In this document: positions 3,053-10,058 of the stretch, piece by piece | How the letters are laid out: each line of letters begins with the position of its first letter | Position numbering within the stretch: position 1 is the stretch's first letter | DNA from: an uncultured Candidatus Saccharibacteria bacterium | GTDB taxonomy: Bacteria; Patescibacteriota; Minisyncoccia; Minisyncoccales; Staskawiczbacteraceae | DNA length: 41,795 nucleotides | Direction: 5' to 3' | Assembly: GCA_964362315.1 (NCBI GenBank) | Contig: CAYIDV010000002.1 | Span: forward strand, 1-41,795 | The notes under the pieces: generated by a model | The model's database searches: none | What the model was told of the DNA's origin: nothing | What the model saw: only the letters and a program-made list of their open reading frames with translations | Made by a program: the position numbers and the translations under genes

Positions 3053-3086
3053 ACAAAAAAAGGGCGCCCTCTACGAGAAGGCGCCT
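3053..3086 (-). terminator. Intrinsic terminator downstream of the 3113..4267 gene
   Basis: On the minus strand, GGCGCC-ttctcgtagag-GGCGCC is followed by a run of eight T (CTTTTTTTT). Confidence 0.6.
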
Positions 3087-3112
3087 GGCGGCGGCATGTG
3101 AATTATCACTTG

Positions 3113-4267
3113 CTACTGCTTGGCGGCGCGCCTTGTGCGGCGTGCCTTGGGAGCTACTTCGGGCTTGGCGTCCGACTGAGGAACATCTTCCGGCTTTGGT
3201 TGTACCGGTCTGGGAAGAGCCAGCATCTTCCACCTACCTTCCAAGCTGAGCCTACGACGGATAAGGTGCTGGATTTGCATCAGCGAATCAAACTCATCCT
3301 TGTTTTCCAGGTACGTCTCCAGATGGAAACCTACGTTCAAGCTACCATCCCACTGTTCTTGAAAGAGCAGTGGCGGAAGCTCATAGGTCTCTCGCGGGAG
3401 GGCAAGTGGCTTGTCGGCTACCCATCCTTCCAATCTGAAGTTGCCTGATTTCTTCTCCTTGTTCAAGAGAAGGGCCAGCAGGCCAACTCCTTTTTCCTGT
3501 CCGTCTTCTTTAGCCCGGAACTTGGTATCGTAGATCACCAAGGATCCAATCTTCATTCCCCGGACAAGCTGGTTCAGGAACTGCTGGTCCGGATCGCTGC
3601 TTAGGGTCGCCTGTTCCAGCAATGGTTTGATTTTGGGCATCACCTCAGCTTGGGTTTTCTCGTAACCCCTGACCGTGCCGACCGCGCTGGTCACAAACGG
3701 CCAAATCAAGTATGCCTTGGCTAAGTTAGTGGGCATGTACCACTGCCCGCTATCCAACGGCCATTGGAACTTCTTGTTCCCCCAGGCGCACCCATCTACT
3801 TTTAAGATAAGACCCTGGGTCTCGATGTTGCCGAGGAAGTTGTTGAGCTGTTCTCGACTGAGAATGGTCCGTGAGGGACGGATGATTTCATCAACCATCT
3901 CTCGAAGATTTCCTAGCAGCGACGGGATGTTTGAAAACTCGTCGATGATGACTAGGGCATCCTCGGAGACTTGTACGCCTCGGGCGATACTCCTGAACAA
4001 CTCCAATTGCTGATCCCATCCCGCTCCTTTCCACTTGCCGAGGTACCACTCGTAAGTGGCTTTGGAGAACGAGTAGTTGATGGAGTCCTGCAGGTTTTGA
4101 ATACAAGTAGCATCGAGAGTGCTAACTGCATCCATGAACATGTCTGCGTTCTTGAACCCTTCCTTAAGCTCGGTCAGAGTCTCTTGCGTTCTCTGGGCCA
4201 GCGAACTTCCCTGTTTGGCCCTAAGCCCTGCAAGTCGCTGACCAAAAGCTGACTGTGGCGTTCCCAT
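3113..4267 (-). CDS. Hypothetical protein, GC-rich, no family recognised; arginine/lysine-rich C-terminal tail
   Basis: 384-aa ORF in a 60-70% GC segment. GAAAGGAAA lies upstream of the ATG. It contains a hhhhDE-like stretch ALVIIDEFSN but I see no Walker A. The C-terminus is PKARRTRRAAKQ. Confidence 0.7.
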   Translation of the reverse strand: MGTPQSAFGQRLAGLRAKQGSSLAQRTQETLTELKEGFKNADMFMDAVSTLDATCIQNLQDSINYSFSKATYEWYLGKWKGAGWDQQLELFRSIARGVQVSEDALVIIDEFSNIPSLLGNLREMVDEIIRPSRTILSREQLNNFLGNIETQGLILKVDGCAWGNKKFQWPLDSGQWYMPTNLAKAYLIWPFVTSAVGTVRGYEKTQAEVMPKIKPLLEQATLSSDPDQQFLNQLVRGMKIGSLVIYDTKFRAKEDGQEKGVGLLALLLNKEKKSGNFRLEGWVADKPLALPRETYELPPLLFQEQWDGSLNVGFHLETYLENKDEFDSLMQIQHLIRRRLSLEGRWKMLALPRPVQPKPEDVPQSDAKPEVAPKARRTRRAAKQ

Positions 4268-4833: not shown

Positions 4834-5736
4834 TTATTGTACAACCTTGACGTTAAGGAGCTTCGGGGGGCGACCCTTCTGACTTCCGAACGCCACCTTG
4901 TCCGAGAAGGAAATGAGCTGTCCAGGGTGCAGACTTTTGACGCCGTCCTCGTCGGGCGATTCGTCAATGTCTACTCCGTGGACCCAGGCATTCTCTCCTT
5001 CCCCGCCGTTTTTCCAGTAATCGAGCGGGTGAAGATTGGCAATGCCTTGGCCTGTTTGTCCTCCGAATAATGAGTACCATTCAACTCGGGCGATTCCTTG
5101 CCCTGGAATTGGTCTCAGGGGAGGATCCAGCTCCTGCAAGGAGCCGTTCCAGTAAGGGAGATGAGCGGTCTCGAGTAGACCTTGAAACTTCTCGTCTTTC
5201 AAGATCCCTTTTCTAACCTCGAATGAGCCCCATGAAGGATCTTCGGGTTTGCCGACGATCTCGCCCTTGCTCTGGTAAAGCTGTCCTCGCCATCGAAACT
5301 TGTTCAAGAGGCGAAAGGTTTCGGCATCGTCATGGGTCACAATGCCGAGTAAGAAACAGTCAAGGTGACCGTTCTCACACAGATGCGAAAGGTCAACGCG
5401 ATTGGGTTTGGCTTCGTGCCAGCTGGTCCATGCGTTTGGACCAACGCGTCTGACCTCAATGTGATCGTGCATGACCCAGGTTTGGACGCCATCCTCGAGT
5501 CCCACTTGTTGAAGAGCGTGACGATGATGGTTACCCTTAGTCTGACCGACGTTTTTCTGGGTGACGACAATCCGACCTTCATCTGGCACGAAGATCACCA
5601 AGTTAAAGCCGTTGGGTTTGACTCCATCGGGAATCTTGAGCACTCCGTGCTCGCCAATCTCCAAGTACTCTCCAGTATTGGAAAGCAACACGCTTGCTGC
5701 GACATCCGCTCCTTCAAACAACCTGACTTGTGCCAT
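4834..5736 (-). CDS. Hypothetical protein with a C-terminal cold-shock-like OB-fold; His-rich N-terminal region
   Basis: 300 aa, GC-rich, with a strong SD AAAGGAGGTG 6 nt before the ATG. The C-terminus GIARVEWY..GQGIA..ENAWVHGVDI..KSLHPGQLISF..KGRPPKLLNVKVV follows the CSD pattern G.V.W...G.GFI...d.FVH...I...L..GQ.V.F....kG..A.nV. The N-terminus has GNHHRH and VMHDH. Confidence 0.6.
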   Translation of the reverse strand: MAQVRLFEGADVAASVLLSNTGEYLEIGEHGVLKIPDGVKPNGFNLVIFVPDEGRIVVTQKNVGQTKGNHHRHALQQVGLEDGVQTWVMHDHIEVRRVGPNAWTSWHEAKPNRVDLSHLCENGHLDCFLLGIVTHDDAETFRLLNKFRWRGQLYQSKGEIVGKPEDPSWGSFEVRKGILKDEKFQGLLETAHLPYWNGSLQELDPPLRPIPGQGIARVEWYSLFGGQTGQGIANLHPLDYWKNGGEGENAWVHGVDIDESPDEDGVKSLHPGQLISFSDKVAFGSQKGRPPKLLNVKVVQ

Positions 5737-5761
5737 TGGGCACCTCCTTTCCTGTGCGTGG

Positions 5762-6667
5762 TTAGACGGGAGACTCCAGCGCCAACATAGCTAACGCCAG
5801 GGCGCCATTCTTGCTTTGTGCTGCGGCAATGAATCGCGAGTTGTGGCAGAACGCGGCATCTGGCACACCGGTTATTCCCTGAAAATCGGCCTTCTCTTTG
5901 CCGGCCCAATTTTGGGGAAGATATCGGCGAGCCTTCAGGATGCCCCTGCTTTCTTGCACGACTCGTACCGTCCACTGACCGCCAGTGGGCACAATCATAA
6001 ACAAAACGTACGGTGCGTTGTCTAGGATCAATTCCTGCCGTGGGCAGGAACGATCAAGAACGATGATGGGCGACTGGCCTGCTTTTGACAGGGCGCGATC
6101 AATTGTTTCCTTGGCAATGGCAGCGCCTTCAGCCGTGACGATCTCATTTTCCAAAGCGACCATGGCATATCCCACAGCATCATGGAACCTCTTGTCGAAG
6201 TCCCGTTGCTGGGGTTTTTTGTGCCAGGGCGGATTGAAGGCCGAGATGGCGTCGGAGATTGAGTATGGAGCTATATTCGGATAGTTCAGTTCCGGATACA
6301 GATCATGCCCAACATCGCGAGAGTCAACTGTCTGGACAAGGCGTTCATCAACCACCGTGGCGTGTGAGAGCGAACCGCAGAGCTTAGCTCCGTAGTTAGC
6401 CCACACCAGGCCAAAAGAGGCATACGGAACGCCATTGGGCCGGACTCCCGCTCCTCCTTCCTGGTGATGGTCAAAATCACCAGTCTCGGGATTGTACTTC
6501 CTGCCGATGTCAATCCTCGCATCGGCTCTGGCCAAAGTGGCGGGATCAGCAAACGTAGCAGGATTGATACTTCTCGTGAGAGAAGTAACCAATCCCAAGA
6601 GACGGAGCGTCGCCATCGCAAAAACATCGTCGGCATGAAACAGGTTGCCATGGGTGACCACGTGCAT
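5762..6667 (-). CDS. MYG1 family (UPF0160) metal-dependent exonuclease/hydrolase, DHH superfamily
   Basis: MHVVTHGNLFHADDVFA matches the MYG1 N-terminal THxGxFHADE motif, and DIGRKYNPETGDFDHHQ matches the D-G...FDHHQ motif. I place the start at ATG 6667, preceded by AAGGAG, rather than at the ORF-track start 6733. Confidence 0.8.
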   Translation of the reverse strand: MHVVTHGNLFHADDVFAMATLRLLGLVTSLTRSINPATFADPATLARADARIDIGRKYNPETGDFDHHQEGGAGVRPNGVPYASFGLVWANYGAKLCGSLSHATVVDERLVQTVDSRDVGHDLYPELNYPNIAPYSISDAISAFNPPWHKKPQQRDFDKRFHDAVGYAMVALENEIVTAEGAAIAKETIDRALSKAGQSPIIVLDRSCPRQELILDNAPYVLFMIVPTGGQWTVRVVQESRGILKARRYLPQNWAGKEKADFQGITGVPDAAFCHNSRFIAAAQSKNGALALAMLALESPV

Positions 6668-6772
6668 AAAGCACTCCTTTCGGTGAGGGGTGTTGTTATT
6701 GAAAAAAAAGTTTTCAAAGGGCGGGAGAAACATAGTTGTATTAATACTATGACTCTCCTGCTTTTTGAAATT

Positions 6773-7732
6773 CTATCTCTGTGTTTTATTAGATAGAGCT
6801 TCTTTTATGAACTTTTTTATTCTTTCTAATGGAATTAATGTCGGTTCAATGCCTTTAGGATTAGTTCCGCCGTTTAAAATTGAATTAGTGGCTCGATCGT
6901 AATACCATTCGGGAACACCAAGAACTTTTCCTGGTTTCATTAAGTCAGAAGTTAAATACCTTAACTTCTTTCCTCTGATAATTGCTTCTTCGTTCCTTAA
7001 GTAAGCAGCCAACCATCTTAGGTCAACTTTTTTTAACGGTCTTGTCATTATATTCACATATCCAGATGACATTTTTTGGCAGACAACATCTGATTTTATT
7101 CCCTGGGAAGATCTTAGCCAGCCGGCAATGCTCATGTTATCGGATTCCAATAACACTACCTTCAAATCTTTTTTGCCTTGTTTTACTTCAAATACTTCAG
7201 CTTCTTTCTTTTCCAATTTTTCCTTAAATTCTCCGGGTATTTCTTCTGTTCTCTTTCTTTCTTCAATGTAATGAGCTTTCAGTAAAATTAAAATTATTTC
7301 TATAATTTTTTCCGGTTTTCCTGGAAAACTTTTATTTAAAGAAGTAATTAACCCTGATAACCCAAATGCCTTATCTAAGGGATCTTGAGAAATCGTACCC
7401 TTTCCATATTTGTCATCCCTTTCGCTATAGGCCAAAAGCTTCTGGATGGCTGGATTGCTAGAAATTTCCAAATCATTGGCAATCAGTTCGGATAAGGTTT
7501 TCATTGTTTGATGATGGTCAAACCTACCTTTTCCTACGTCTAAAACCAATACTCCTTTTCCCTCTAGTGAGGATGCTGTTTCTCCCTTAGGAAGCTCTTG
7601 CAAAATTTCCACTATTGCCTTTTCAATGCCAGGATACTTTTGTTGGCCAAAGTTTTTCAAAAGAAAAATGCCTACAATCGTGTCTGGCTGGGGCCGAGTG
7701 GGAATAATAATCTTTTGGAATGAATTTATCAT
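6773..7732 (-). CDS. Divergent MYG1/DHH-like paralog, AT-rich
   Basis: 319 aa. It retains LDVGKGRFDHHQ, but the N-terminal THxGxFHADE motif is replaced by IPTRPQPDTIVG. Confidence 0.55.
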   Translation of the reverse strand: MINSFQKIIIPTRPQPDTIVGIFLLKNFGQQKYPGIEKAIVEILQELPKGETASSLEGKGVLVLDVGKGRFDHHQTMKTLSELIANDLEISSNPAIQKLLAYSERDDKYGKGTISQDPLDKAFGLSGLITSLNKSFPGKPEKIIEIILILLKAHYIEERKRTEEIPGEFKEKLEKKEAEVFEVKQGKKDLKVVLLESDNMSIAGWLRSSQGIKSDVVCQKMSSGYVNIMTRPLKKVDLRWLAAYLRNEEAIIRGKKLRYLTSDLMKPGKVLGVPEWYYDRATNSILNGGTNPKGIEPTLIPLERIKKFIKEALSNKTQR

Positions 7733-7817
7733 ACCTTTCTAATTATATACTTTATGTTATTATATGTCAAGTATCAAAAAACGGCCCTCTAAAGTGTCGT
7801 CTTTGTCTTTAAAATAT

Positions 7818-7946
7818 TTATTTCTTGCTGGATAATTTTAAACTCATCCGATGTTCCTTGGGTTCGATTAATAAAACCTCAAAATCGTAGGTTTCGCCAA
7901 CTTTTAAAGATTCTTCTATTTTTTTGGCAGAACTAAATTCGGAAAT
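7818..7946 (-). pseudogene. Relic copy of the rpsA 3' end (last 42 codons plus stop)
   Basis: The minus-strand translation ISEFSSAKKIEESLKVGETYDFEVLLIEPKEHRMSLKLSSKK* matches the S1 C-terminus ISEFKSQKEMEESLKAGETYDFEILLIEPKEHRMSLKLVIKK* at 34 of 42 positions. In-frame stops lie immediately upstream. Confidence 0.85.
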
Positions 7947-7962
7947 TTAAGCTTTTTATATT

Positions 7963-8625
7963 TTATGAAAAGATATCATCTTTTAACTTATTGGCTTCTT
8001 TGATAAAAAAACTTTGCCACTCTTCAGGTGACACATTTGCAATCATCAGAGGTAAATCAGTTGCTATCCTTGATTTTACAAATTGCGCTCCGAGAGTGAT
8101 TGGATCAACATGCCAATCAAATTTTACTTTTGCTAAAGAAATAAGATCTTTTATAGAATAGTGATTTTTTTTAATAATGCAGTATAGGTCAATATAATCC
8201 CTGGCTTTTGTCCTTTGATAAATCGTAAAAAGCTTATTTACCGCAATATCTTTAAGGCTGTCAATTTCCACACCGTACTGTTTTTCCCCTTTTTCGATTC
8301 TTGTGAAAGGAAAGTAGGTAAATTCCACTTTTAAGTTTTCGTCGGGAAAATTTATAAAAAAAATATTGCGATTAAAACTTTGTTGAAGTTCAAACGTATC
8401 ATAACCTATCACCATTTTATTTTTCTTTAAAAAGGATTGAATTGATAATAGATCCACTTCGTGCTCCGAAAAAAAGTCCAGGTCTTCAGAATAGCGATGC
8501 TGTAAATAAAAAACTGCTAAAGGCGTTCCTCCGGTCAAATAAAAACTCTTGACAATGTTTTTTTCTTTGCCAATGATATCAAGAAACGCCATTTGCCTTT
8601 TAGAAAGCATCTGATCCATGATCAA
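7963..8625 (-). CDS. Nucleotidyltransferase, AbiEii/AbiGii (DUF1814) toxin family
   Basis: 220 aa with the LTGGTPLAVFYLQHRYSEDLDFF motif typical of the family. It overlaps the upstream small gene. Confidence 0.75.
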   Translation of the reverse strand: MIMDQMLSKRQMAFLDIIGKEKNIVKSFYLTGGTPLAVFYLQHRYSEDLDFFSEHEVDLLSIQSFLKKNKMVIGYDTFELQQSFNRNIFFINFPDENLKVEFTYFPFTRIEKGEKQYGVEIDSLKDIAVNKLFTIYQRTKARDYIDLYCIIKKNHYSIKDLISLAKVKFDWHVDPITLGAQFVKSRIATDLPLMIANVSPEEWQSFFIKEANKLKDDIFS

Positions 8626-8809
8626 GAAGAAGACTCAGAAAAGCTTTTTTTGATGGATCCAGTTGAAGCTTAGACCAGTATCGCCTTAATTCTTTCTCGT
8701 TAATCTTTTCTTTACCGAGTCCAAAGTTAATAAGTTGTTCTAATCGCCAAATAGCGTATTCGTCGGGATGTTTTTTAAGTAGCTCTACGTCAGTAGACCA
8801 ATTTTTCAT
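8600..8809 (-). CDS. Small partner protein upstream of and overlapping the NTase; putative cognate antitoxin
   Basis: 69-aa ORF overlapping the NTase ORF by 26 nt, a typical toxin-antitoxin arrangement. I could not recognise a canonical AbiEi wHTH. Confidence 0.5.
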   Translation of the reverse strand: MKNWSTDVELLKKHPDEYAIWRLEQLINFGLGKEKINEKELRRYWSKLQLDPSKKAFLSLLLDHGSDAF

Positions 8810-8834
8810 AATACTATTATATCAAAATTTAAGA

Positions 8835-8876
8835 AACAAAGCAAAAATCCCGCGATGCGGGATTTTTGCTTTGTTT
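8835..8876 (-). terminator. rpsA intrinsic terminator
   Basis: AAACAAAGCAAAAATCCCGC-gat-GCGGGATTTTTGCTTTGTTT, a 20-bp perfect stem with internal T runs. Confidence 0.75.
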
Positions 8877-8882
8877 GAGTAT

Positions 8883-10058
8883 TTATTTTTTTATCACCAG
8901 CTTCAAGCTCATCCTGTGTTCTTTTGGTTCTATGAGTAGAATTTCAAAATCATAAGTTTCTCCTGCCTTCAGTGATTCCTCCATTTCTTTCTGCGATTTG
9001 AATTCAGAGATATGACAAAGACCTCTTATTTTTGGCAAAACCTCAACAAAGGCGCCAAAAGAGCTGAAAGAAATTATCTTGCCTTTTATAACGTCACCTT
9101 TTTTGTACTTTTTTTCAATCTCTTCCCAGGGATTTTCTTTTAATCTCTTTAGAGACAAAAACACCTGATTATTGCTTATTTCTATAATTTGGGCTTTGAC
9201 AGTCTCGCCAACTTTTACAACCTCCGAGGGATTTTGGACCAATTGCCAGTCCAGTTCTGAAATGTGAATTAGTCCTTCAATTTCGCCCCTTACAGTTTTG
9301 CCCCGCTCTTGTTTTTCAGATTTCCCTTGGATACTCTCTTCAGGAATACTCTTTGAATTTTCATCTGGCAAAACTTGGGAGGGTAAAGGAAACTTAATAA
9401 ATACCCCAAAATCGGCGATGCCGGTTATTTTTCCTTCAACAATATCTCCTTTTTTATAATCTTTAAGAATTTCTTTTAATACCTGCTCTGTTTTTGCTTT
9501 TTCAGACAGTATAAGCTTGTTTTCCTGAGCCAACAAATCCAGTATTTTTACTTCCAAAGTTTTACCAATGAATTTTTGCAGCTCTTTTAAAATCTTTTGC
9601 TTGTCGGCATCAACAACCCTTGGATAATTTTCCGGAGACAGCTGCGAAACTGGCAAAAAAGCAGGTATACCGTTAATGCTGCTAAGCAATCCTCCCTTGT
9701 TTACTCCTGTAATTTTCACGCTTATAATTTCTTCTTTTAGCTTCATATCTTTAAGTTTTTGCCAGCTTATGTCTTCCATGGCATCTTTCAGGGAAAGTTC
9801 AACATAGCCATCTTCGTTTTCCAACTCAACGACCTTAGCATGAACCGTGTCCCCAATGTTTAGGTTTTTAATGGCATCTTTCACTTGGTAAAATTCCTTG
9901 CCGTAAATAATACCGGTGCCTCCCTGAGAGCCTAAATCAACAAAAAGAGATGATCTGTCCCGTGCCACAATCTTTCCTTCAACCAAAGACCCCACCGACA
10001 GCATAGTCAGTCCCTCCTCTAATTTTTTAGCGGTATTTTCCTTGGTCATATTTAACAT
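8883..10058 (-). CDS. rpsA: 30S ribosomal protein S1
   Basis: 391 aa with repeated S1 OB-fold units (G.IV.G.V....G.FV.L). Confidence 0.9.
   Translation of the reverse strand: MLNMTKENTAKKLEEGLTMLSVGSLVEGKIVARDRSSLFVDLGSQGGTGIIYGKEFYQVKDAIKNLNIGDTVHAKVVELENEDGYVELSLKDAMEDISWQKLKDMKLKEEIISVKITGVNKGGLLSSINGIPAFLPVSQLSPENYPRVVDADKQKILKELQKFIGKTLEVKILDLLAQENKLILSEKAKTEQVLKEILKDYKKGDIVEGKITGIADFGVFIKFPLPSQVLPDENSKSIPEESIQGKSEKQERGKTVRGEIEGLIHISELDWQLVQNPSEVVKVGETVKAQIIEISNNQVFLSLKRLKENPWEEIEKKYKKGDVIKGKIISFSSFGAFVEVLPKIRGLCHISEFKSQKEMEESLKAGETYDFEILLIEPKEHRMSLKLVIKK

Follow-up and report, generated by a model that had tools for sequence, protein, structure and literature searches.

Architecture of the rpsA locus

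The window, by which we mean the whole stretch of 41,795 nucleotides (nt) analysed here (contig CAYIDV010000002.1, assembly GCA_964362315.1), comes from an uncultured Candidatus Saccharibacteria bacterium (family Staskawiczbacteraceae) and carries rpsA, the gene for ribosomal protein S1, together with a second copy of the rpsA 3' end that is stranded behind a small two-gene cassette. The source assembly (G000) is a metagenome-assembled draft of 0.6 Mb in 51 contigs. The rpsA gene itself is intact (8883..10058, minus strand, from the listing of open reading frames, ORFs) and encodes a protein of 391 amino acids (aa) with five S1 domains (PF00575, E 2.4e-46), whose orthologues across the genus share 70–82% identity. 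Its last 42 codons and stop, in frame with the rest of the gene, are termed R1 (8883..9011, minus strand). Behind R1 follow an intrinsic terminator (8834..8876, minus strand; a 20-pair stem with 8 G-C pairs and a T run), which also surfaced as a self-complementary match when the genome was compared with itself, a gene for a 69-aa partner protein and putative antitoxin (8600..8809, minus strand, ORF listing), and a gene for a 220-aa AbiEii-family nucleotidyltransferase (NTase) and putative toxin (7963..8625, minus strand, PF08843). The stranded copy, R2, begins 16 nt past the end of the NTase gene in minus-strand order and comprises 42 codons and a stop with no start codon (7818..7946, minus strand).

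The interval between R1 and R2 (7947–8882, 936 bp) holds the terminator, the partner gene and the AbiEii gene only, and no second copy of this segment was found elsewhere in the 0.6-Mb genome. On its other side R2 directly borders the ancestral downstream context of rpsA, namely a sigma-70-like promoter (7742..7770, minus strand; TTGACA, 17 nt, TATAAT, with 12 of 12 consensus matches) that serves the gene for a 319-aa MYG1-like paralogue (6773..7732, minus strand), the native downstream neighbour of rpsA.

Comparison of the two rpsA ends

The translations of R2 (7818–7961, minus strand, ending in ISEFSSAKKIEESLKVGETYDFEVLLIEPKEHRMSLKLSSKK and a stop) and R1 (8883–9026, minus strand, ending in ISEFKSQKEMEESLKAGETYDFEILLIEPKEHRMSLKLVIKK and a stop) are identical at 34 of 42 residues and terminate at the same position. 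Two stops lie just upstream in the R2 frame (I*KA*, stops as asterisks), so that R2 is not part of a longer ORF, and R2 scored E-values of 1e-14 to 5e-15 by tblastn and HMMER. A genome self-BLASTN at E 1e-6 missed the repeat because of its divergence, and a protein-level scan was needed. An earlier note on this DNA had already read 7818–7946 as the last 42 S1 codons plus a stop, with 34 of 42 residues matching the rpsA C-terminus and an interval of about 0.9 kb holding only the NTase, its partner and the terminator; its coordinates and counts proved correct throughout.

An assembly chimera, or a chance remnant of some S1-domain gene, might mimic such an arrangement, and a 51-contig metagenome-assembled draft gives the former some footing. 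The match is nevertheless to the very last 42 codons and the stop of rpsA and to no other S1 domain (E ~1e-14), which excludes the unrelated S1-domain gene that the earlier note had considered as a source of the similarity, and the same layout occurs in five independent assemblies from different projects (see below). We regard an artefact or a chance match as barely credible.

Aligned at the nucleotide level, R1 and R2 differ at 42 of 126 coding bases (67% identity), distributed 9/5/28 over codon positions 1/2/3, with no indel and no new stop; by the Nei–Gojobori method, silent sites are saturated, the nonsynonymous proportion (pN) is 0.13 and approximately 69% of the differences are synonymous. 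Neutral decay was simulated in 20,000 trials, each of which hit the live sequence with 42 random substitutions whose new bases followed genome composition. The mean identity retained was 16 of 42 residues, none of the 20,000 trials reached 34 (P<5e-5) and only 10% stayed free of stops; crediting the live copy with its share of the silent changes left this gap open.

These figures bear on a duplication of the target in situ, in which some 130 bp would have been copied at insertion, the live copy then drifting silently as the remnant decayed. The architecture would fit such an origin, since a small cargo without a mobility gene, a repeat of more than 30 bp over a stop codon, an empty site in relatives and a competence-proficient host are all features of the cases described by Furuta, Abe & Kobayashi 2010 (PMC2853133). 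Decay predicts about 31% synonymous differences and common stops or indels, however, against the 69% and the absence of either seen in G000, and the retention of 34 of 42 residues is matched by similar behaviour at four other loci. The codon-position and simulation tests reject in-situ duplication followed by decay, and we consider this origin very improbable.

Given the third-position bias and the preserved protein, each copy must have been a working rpsA end during nearly all of their divergence. Judged from their substitution pattern, R1 and R2 are two functional rpsA alleles of diverged lineages joined by recombination, and the pattern likewise supports their having been brought together recently relative to the pace of pseudogene decay. 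The earlier note had taken the divergence of the copies as a sign that the flank came from another lineage, and the third-position-dominated, protein-preserving differences agree with this.

All four bases are affected by the differences between R1 and R2, of which 26 are transitions and 16 transversions, and the longest identical run is of 9 nt (AAATAAATA), located at the stop codon and away from the left edge of the remnant. The template and variable repeats of a diversity-generating retroelement were considered as a source of the pair and rejected, as the differences are not confined to adenines and no reverse transcriptase lies nearby. A textbook retroelement of this kind does exist outside the window (contig C12:5272–7472) and makes a useful contrast: a GC-rich gene of 254 aa holds the variable repeat at its C-terminus (6758–6877), the template repeat is at 6337–6456 and the reverse transcriptase at 5272–6204, and all 17 repeat differences are at template adenines.

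Empty sites in relatives

The earlier note had described the locus as the scar of a cassette insertion or recombination at the rpsA 3' end and had called for a comparison with relatives, in which rpsA indeed runs directly into the gene that lies on the R2 side in G000. In G004 (contig L051), a genome of the same genus, rpsA is followed after 59 nt by an orthologue of the 319-aa gene (59% identity), and in metagenome contig L075 rpsA stands directly before another (72% identity); a third orthologue follows the rpsA remnant of contig L125 (see below). The intergenic region of L075 has in common with the stretch between R2 and the 319-aa gene of G000 a hairpin tail, GGCCGTTTTT, and a promoter block, ACTTGACATAT...TATAAT, so that the promoter at 7742..7770 is also kept behind an intact rpsA. 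In these empty-site relatives the rpsA 3' end and the terminator, promoter and gene behind it are colinear with the stretch that starts at R2. R2 therefore sits where the ancestral rpsA end sat, and it is on this colinearity that we read R2 as native. The terminator behind R1 has no counterpart in the empty-site relatives, and R1, this terminator and the cassette would together represent the insert. Neither nearest-neighbour distances nor a sliding-window scan of the divergence along rpsA singled out the native copy, and the R1 region of rpsA was not anomalously diverged in G006 and G019, two of the further carriers described below.

The neighbourhood of the locus is variable in its own right. 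Downstream of it, between positions 1000 and 6750 of the window, lie GC-rich genes (~50–54% GC versus ~35% genome-wide) whose order and orientation shuffle between relatives; an inversion of P300 and the 319-aa gene is seen in G006, L066, L099, L105 and L132, and in G019 a GC-rich stretch follows immediately after the rpsA remnant (L039:2244–3000).

Recurrence at rpsA in other lineages

We scanned 22 genomes of the genus and 80 metagenome contigs carrying a relative of rpsA, and found the order rpsA, cargo, rpsA 3' remnant in four further assemblies (G019, G006, L117 and L125). Including G000, these loci carry three unrelated two-gene cargos. G019 (contig L039) has a pair consisting of a DUF6922 gene and an AbiEii gene, followed by an orthologue of the G000 pair (78% identity for the partner, 67% for the NTase) and by a remnant that is broken by a 45-nt GC-rich hairpin. 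The cargo of G006 (contig L037) is an unrelated pair, encoding an HATPase-like protein of 286 aa and a STAS-like one of 122 aa (both by weak Pfam hits), bracketed by a 152-nt repeat that is 91% identical in its coding part and 100% identical through the terminator and the -10 box. Both L117 and L125 carry a DUF6922 and AbiEii pair, with a remnant that is readable and without a stop in the former and that contains a TGA stop in the latter. The AbiEii gene of L125 (L125:7480–8115) is split into two ORFs of 75 and 132 aa next to an intact partner gene, which indicates that this toxin is decaying.

A remnant was thus present at all five loci with a cassette after rpsA, and neither cassette nor remnant at any of about 95 others (5/5 versus 0/~95), a contrast that is descriptive only, since related genomes are not independent. 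The earlier note had named a duplication without a cassette in relatives as an observation that would speak against it, and no remnant occurred at the ~95 cassette-free rpsA loci. A separate scan of 79 genomes of the family flagged only G000 and G006, the G019 remnant being too interrupted to register. The rpsA 3' end is a recurrent hotspot for different cargos. The rpsA tree was too poorly resolved to say whether the carriers form one clade.

Differences of the R1/R2 type had the same character throughout, with 9 in G006 (0/1/8 by codon position), 12 in G019 (4/2/6), 21 in L117 (5/2/14) and 20 in L125 (7/2/11), and neutral decay was rejected at each of these loci too (all P<=2.5e-4). The remnants of L117 and L125 moreover differ from one another in a coding-like manner (4/0/9). 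The boundaries are less uniform: remnants start at about codon 350 in G000, at 357–358 in both G006 and G019, and further along in L125. The starts of G006 and G019 are only 5 nt apart despite their different cargo, and that of G000 lies upstream of them by at least 21 nt. On its right side the repeat ends at the stop codon in G000 and past the terminator and -10 box in G006.

The allele types of the remnants bear on the possibility that the direction is reversed, with R1 native and R2 foreign. The cassette could travel with a distal rpsA 3' fragment as its homology arm, through Campbell-type integration of a circular intermediate, or R2 could later have been overwritten by downstream DNA from a cassette-free relative and so be a periodically 'refreshed remnant'. 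Such schemes would account for the remnants of L117 and L125, which share an FTV..LVD allele type that is unlike their own in-frame ends and is live elsewhere (e.g. in L124), and the complete identity of the terminator and -10 part in G006 would fit a crossover or conversion tract. The remnants of G019 and G006, on the other hand, carry signatures of their own clade (ESYQF, KPGE) and are nearest to the allele of their own genome and to clade relatives, that of G000 shares with the empty sites the order of native terminator, promoter and gene behind it, and a reversed direction needs a donor that is already duplicated, leaving the first origin unexplained. We hold it to be quite unlikely and retain R2 as the probable native end.

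Small in-frame insertions were also observed within rpsA itself. GC-rich insertions of 39–54 nt occur in the gene in G018/L077, G014 and G001 (contigs L040, L077, L043 and L045), are palindromic in G018/L077 and G014, and lie in the loop of the last S1 domain (ISEFA|...|MEESL), exactly at the point where the remnants begin; the rpsA match of G041 is also about 40 nt longer there. They recall the Rickettsia palindromic elements, which enter genes in frame. The 45-nt GC-rich hairpin that interrupts the G019 remnant (L039:~3085–3130) has a folding energy of -25 kcal/mol.

The AbiEii cassette

The NTase is well supported as a member of the AbiEii/DUF1814 family (PF08843, E 1.6e-19, 71 bits versus a cut-off of 22.5), with matches to 18 PADLOC AbiEii models (best E 1.1e-14) and distant relatives in the Protein Data Bank (PDB; 4o8s and 4ok0, E ~5e-7). 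Its sequence contains the motifs GGT...SEDLDFF (G-G-T...D-L-D) and RTKARDYIDL (R-x-K-A-R-D-x-x-D-L). The 69-aa partner gene, which is on the same strand, runs with its stop 26 nt into the NTase gene, and the partner is kept beside AbiEii in seven lineages, with 15 invariant columns. No match to it was found in Pfam, NCBIfam or PADLOC, and homology with DUF6922 was rejected as not significant (hhalign probability 2%).

From this gene order and these domains, the cassette is probably a type IV-like toxin–antitoxin pair, with the NTase toxin preceded by a small, non-canonical putative antitoxin, and a role in toxin–antitoxin or abortive infection would follow. It resembles the AbiE (AbiEi plus AbiEii) type IV system in its AbiEii toxin and in being an overlapping two-gene operon with the small gene first. 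It differs in lacking a winged-helix AbiEi antitoxin upstream, the 69-aa partner being too short for AbiEi and matching no AbiEi or winged helix-turn-helix model.

The earlier note had also proposed a search for the cassette at other loci. Nine homologous cassettes (51–59% NTase identity) were found at other sites in the family, none of them with a duplicated neighbour-gene end within its 1.5-kb flanks. We therefore rejected the idea that the bracket is a property of the cassette; with nine homologues lacking it, the bracket belongs to the locus.

Recombinases and other gene-end duplicates

No integrase, transposase or inverted repeat was found in or beside any of the five inserts. G000 encodes one tyrosine recombinase (PF00589) and two serine recombinases (PF00239), all on other contigs, as well as ComEC (E 1.3e-54), DprA (E 2.1e-77) and RecA (E 7.7e-129). 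A phage or plasmid vector was rejected as the source, as neither the NTase nor the rpsA end had a relative on the viral contigs searched.

The presence of three recombinases in the genome means that site-specific integration in trans has to be weighed. The insert would then be an element without its own integrase, akin to a cis-mobilizable element (CIME), mobilized by a tyrosine or serine recombinase encoded elsewhere and with an attachment site that mimics the rpsA 3' end, R1 being the replacement end on the attL side and R2 the host end on the attR side. Known integrative elements do target the 3' ends of conserved genes and carry a replacement end, and the near-coincident starts of the G006 and G019 remnants are what a fixed attachment site would give. 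The longest identity between R1 and R2, however, is the 9-nt run at the stop codon rather than at the left edge of the remnant, the remnant starts and the right ends of the repeats vary between loci, and none of the five has a recombinase close by. An att-like bracket is also missing from the homologous cassettes elsewhere, and the rpsA end and NTase are absent from the viral contigs. The evidence argues against classical site-specific integration, and recruitment of a distant recombinase by the rpsA locus strikes us as improbable.

Two other gene ends in G000 are duplicated in a comparable manner. The first 45 codons of a comM-like gene recur 0.8 kb upstream of it (contig C1:48003–50522), the copies differing at 34 nt (8/5/21 by codon position) with one stop and enclosing a GC-rich gene whose Cys-rich repeats are partly masked; this allele-like bracket resembles that at rpsA and is found at a 5' end. 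On the same contig (C1:12011–12319), a uvrB-like gene is followed, 115 nt past its stop and after a hairpin, by a second copy of its C-terminal UVR motif, with 17 nt differing (5/0/12). The downstream copy ends like a canonical UvrB and the live gene has a longer tail, and to judge from these sequences the duplicate may represent a gene-end replacement without cargo. Both duplicates show third-position-dominated divergence like that of rpsA, which we count in favour of the explanation developed in the next section.

A further repeat of another type was noted on contig C3 (22448–23994), where two pilin-like genes with near-identical 5' ends (a 111-nt repeat, 99% identical, with the first 23 residues matching) flank a gene for a 93-aa protein that by eye is GIY-YIG nuclease-like.

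Origin of the duplicated end

We favour the view that the locus is the scar of a homology-anchored recombinational import that displaced the native rpsA end, and we put its probability at roughly 60%. DNA from another Parcubacteria lineage would have brought in the 3' part of rpsA, the terminator and a two-gene AbiEii-type addiction or defence cassette. Homology within rpsA would have anchored the recombination, with natural transformation and RecA as the most likely route. At its far end, the imported piece would have joined inside the recipient rpsA some 90–135 nt before its stop (about 130 nt in G000), either in a one-sided event, homologous at one end and illegitimate at the other, or by single or double crossover with the rpsA 3' end as a second arm. 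As an outcome, rpsA would have stayed intact and would now end in the incoming allele, R1, with the recipient's last 42 codons, R2, stranded behind the cassette, where they would remain continuous with the native terminator, promoter and downstream gene. The unit of rpsA, R1, cargo and R2 could then spread whole, R2 acting as a second homology arm. Remnant length may itself be filtered, to repeats long enough for RecA but short and diverged enough to avoid loss of the cassette, and an addictive toxin–antitoxin cargo would oppose its loss through recombination between R1 and R2.

What the sequences show is a duplicated gene end with allele-like divergence between its copies, empty sites in relatives, the same layout recurring with other cargos, and no recombinase linked to the insert. 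From these we infer which copy is foreign, the route by which the DNA entered, the nature of the far joint and the toxin–antitoxin activity of the cargo.

Several observations weigh against a homology-anchored import. Over 129 nt including the stop, R1, R2 and the nearest empty-site allele, that of L075, stand at similar distances from one another (36, 39 and 42 differences), and the direction of import therefore hangs on colinearity alone; neither a donor nor a near-identical cassette-free strain was found among the relatives. RecA-mediated recombination is inefficient between alleles that are 33% diverged. Remnant starts cluster within about 10 codons at several loci, where a random illegitimate joint predicts otherwise, and G019 has two cassettes with no remnant between them. 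Finally, rpsA and the cassette align continuously between L117 and L125 at a uniform 69% nt identity, so that the insertion there looks old, yet the remnants are still readable.

A more far-reaching extension of homology-anchored import would make the rpsA 3' end a portable landing pad, small addiction or defence cassettes of these ultra-small, competence-proficient bacteria spreading between diverged lineages as natural 'knock-in constructs' with a replacement rpsA end on one side and an rpsA 3' fragment on the other. Plain RecA could then insert a cassette behind the essential and highly conserved rpsA of any relative, irrespective of the downstream gene and without help from a dedicated recombinase, and the comM 5' and uvrB 3' duplicates of G000 would be products of the same process. 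This is speculative, and we hold it to be unlikely.

Significance and comparison with known systems

Gene transfer in bacteria of the Candidate Phyla Radiation (CPR) is poorly understood, given their tiny genomes, few mobile elements and lack of solo culture. The rpsA locus offers a clear and repeatable footprint of gene gain without a mobility gene, in which a foreign allele would have taken the place of an essential gene's end and the native end would persist as a datable marker, and the allele-like divergence of R1 and R2 shows exchange across species-level distances. A gene-end remnant with silent-site divergence is easily screened for in metagenomes, and such footprints could serve to map recombination-driven cassette flux and hotspots of toxin–antitoxin or defence genes.

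Among known mobile elements, the integrative and conjugative elements (ICEs) ICESt1 and ICESt3 at fda, and others at rplL or rpsI, target gene 3' ends and supply a replacement end, and CIMEs lack an integrase of their own. The rpsA locus is similar to these in that a gene 3' end is duplicated, with the live copy adjoining the element and the displaced copy at its far end, but it differs in having no identical core, variable boundaries, no nearby integrase and an insert of less than 1 kb. Homology-facilitated illegitimate recombination during natural transformation, reportedly described by de Vries and Wackernagel in 2002, has in common with our case a one-sided anchor, the lack of a mobility gene and the presence of ComEC, DprA and RecA; classical events of that type, in contrast, usually delete recipient DNA and leave no duplicated remnant.

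Of the phenomena described so far, the locus comes nearest to insertion with long target duplication, known from restriction-modification systems (Nobusato et al. 2000, Gene 259:99; Furuta, Abe & Kobayashi 2010, PMC2853133). In those cases, direct repeats of 30 to more than 400 bp, often spanning a stop or start and leaving the gene intact, flank a small selfish or addiction-type gene unit without transposase or integrase (the criteria call for an insert of less than 20 kb), relatives have the empty site, and the hosts are mostly naturally transformable, the authors suggesting a link to DNA double-strand breakage (PMC2853133). The 936-bp insert at rpsA, within that size limit and without a mobility gene, and the 129-nt repeat that is single-copy at the empty sites of G004/L051 and L075, are alike in these respects. 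The two repeats are near-identical in the described cases (e.g. 417/423; PMC2853133), whereas those at rpsA are 67–91% identical with silent-site-dominated differences, as expected of two alleles rather than one duplicated target. The cargo is also different, comprising an AbiEii pair, a DUF6922 and AbiEii pair or a HATPase/STAS-like pair in place of restriction-modification genes, here the host is a Parcubacteria member with a 0.6-Mb genome, and one essential gene end has been hit repeatedly across lineages. The rpsA locus thereby extends insertion with long target duplication, the mechanism of which is still unresolved, beyond restriction-modification systems.

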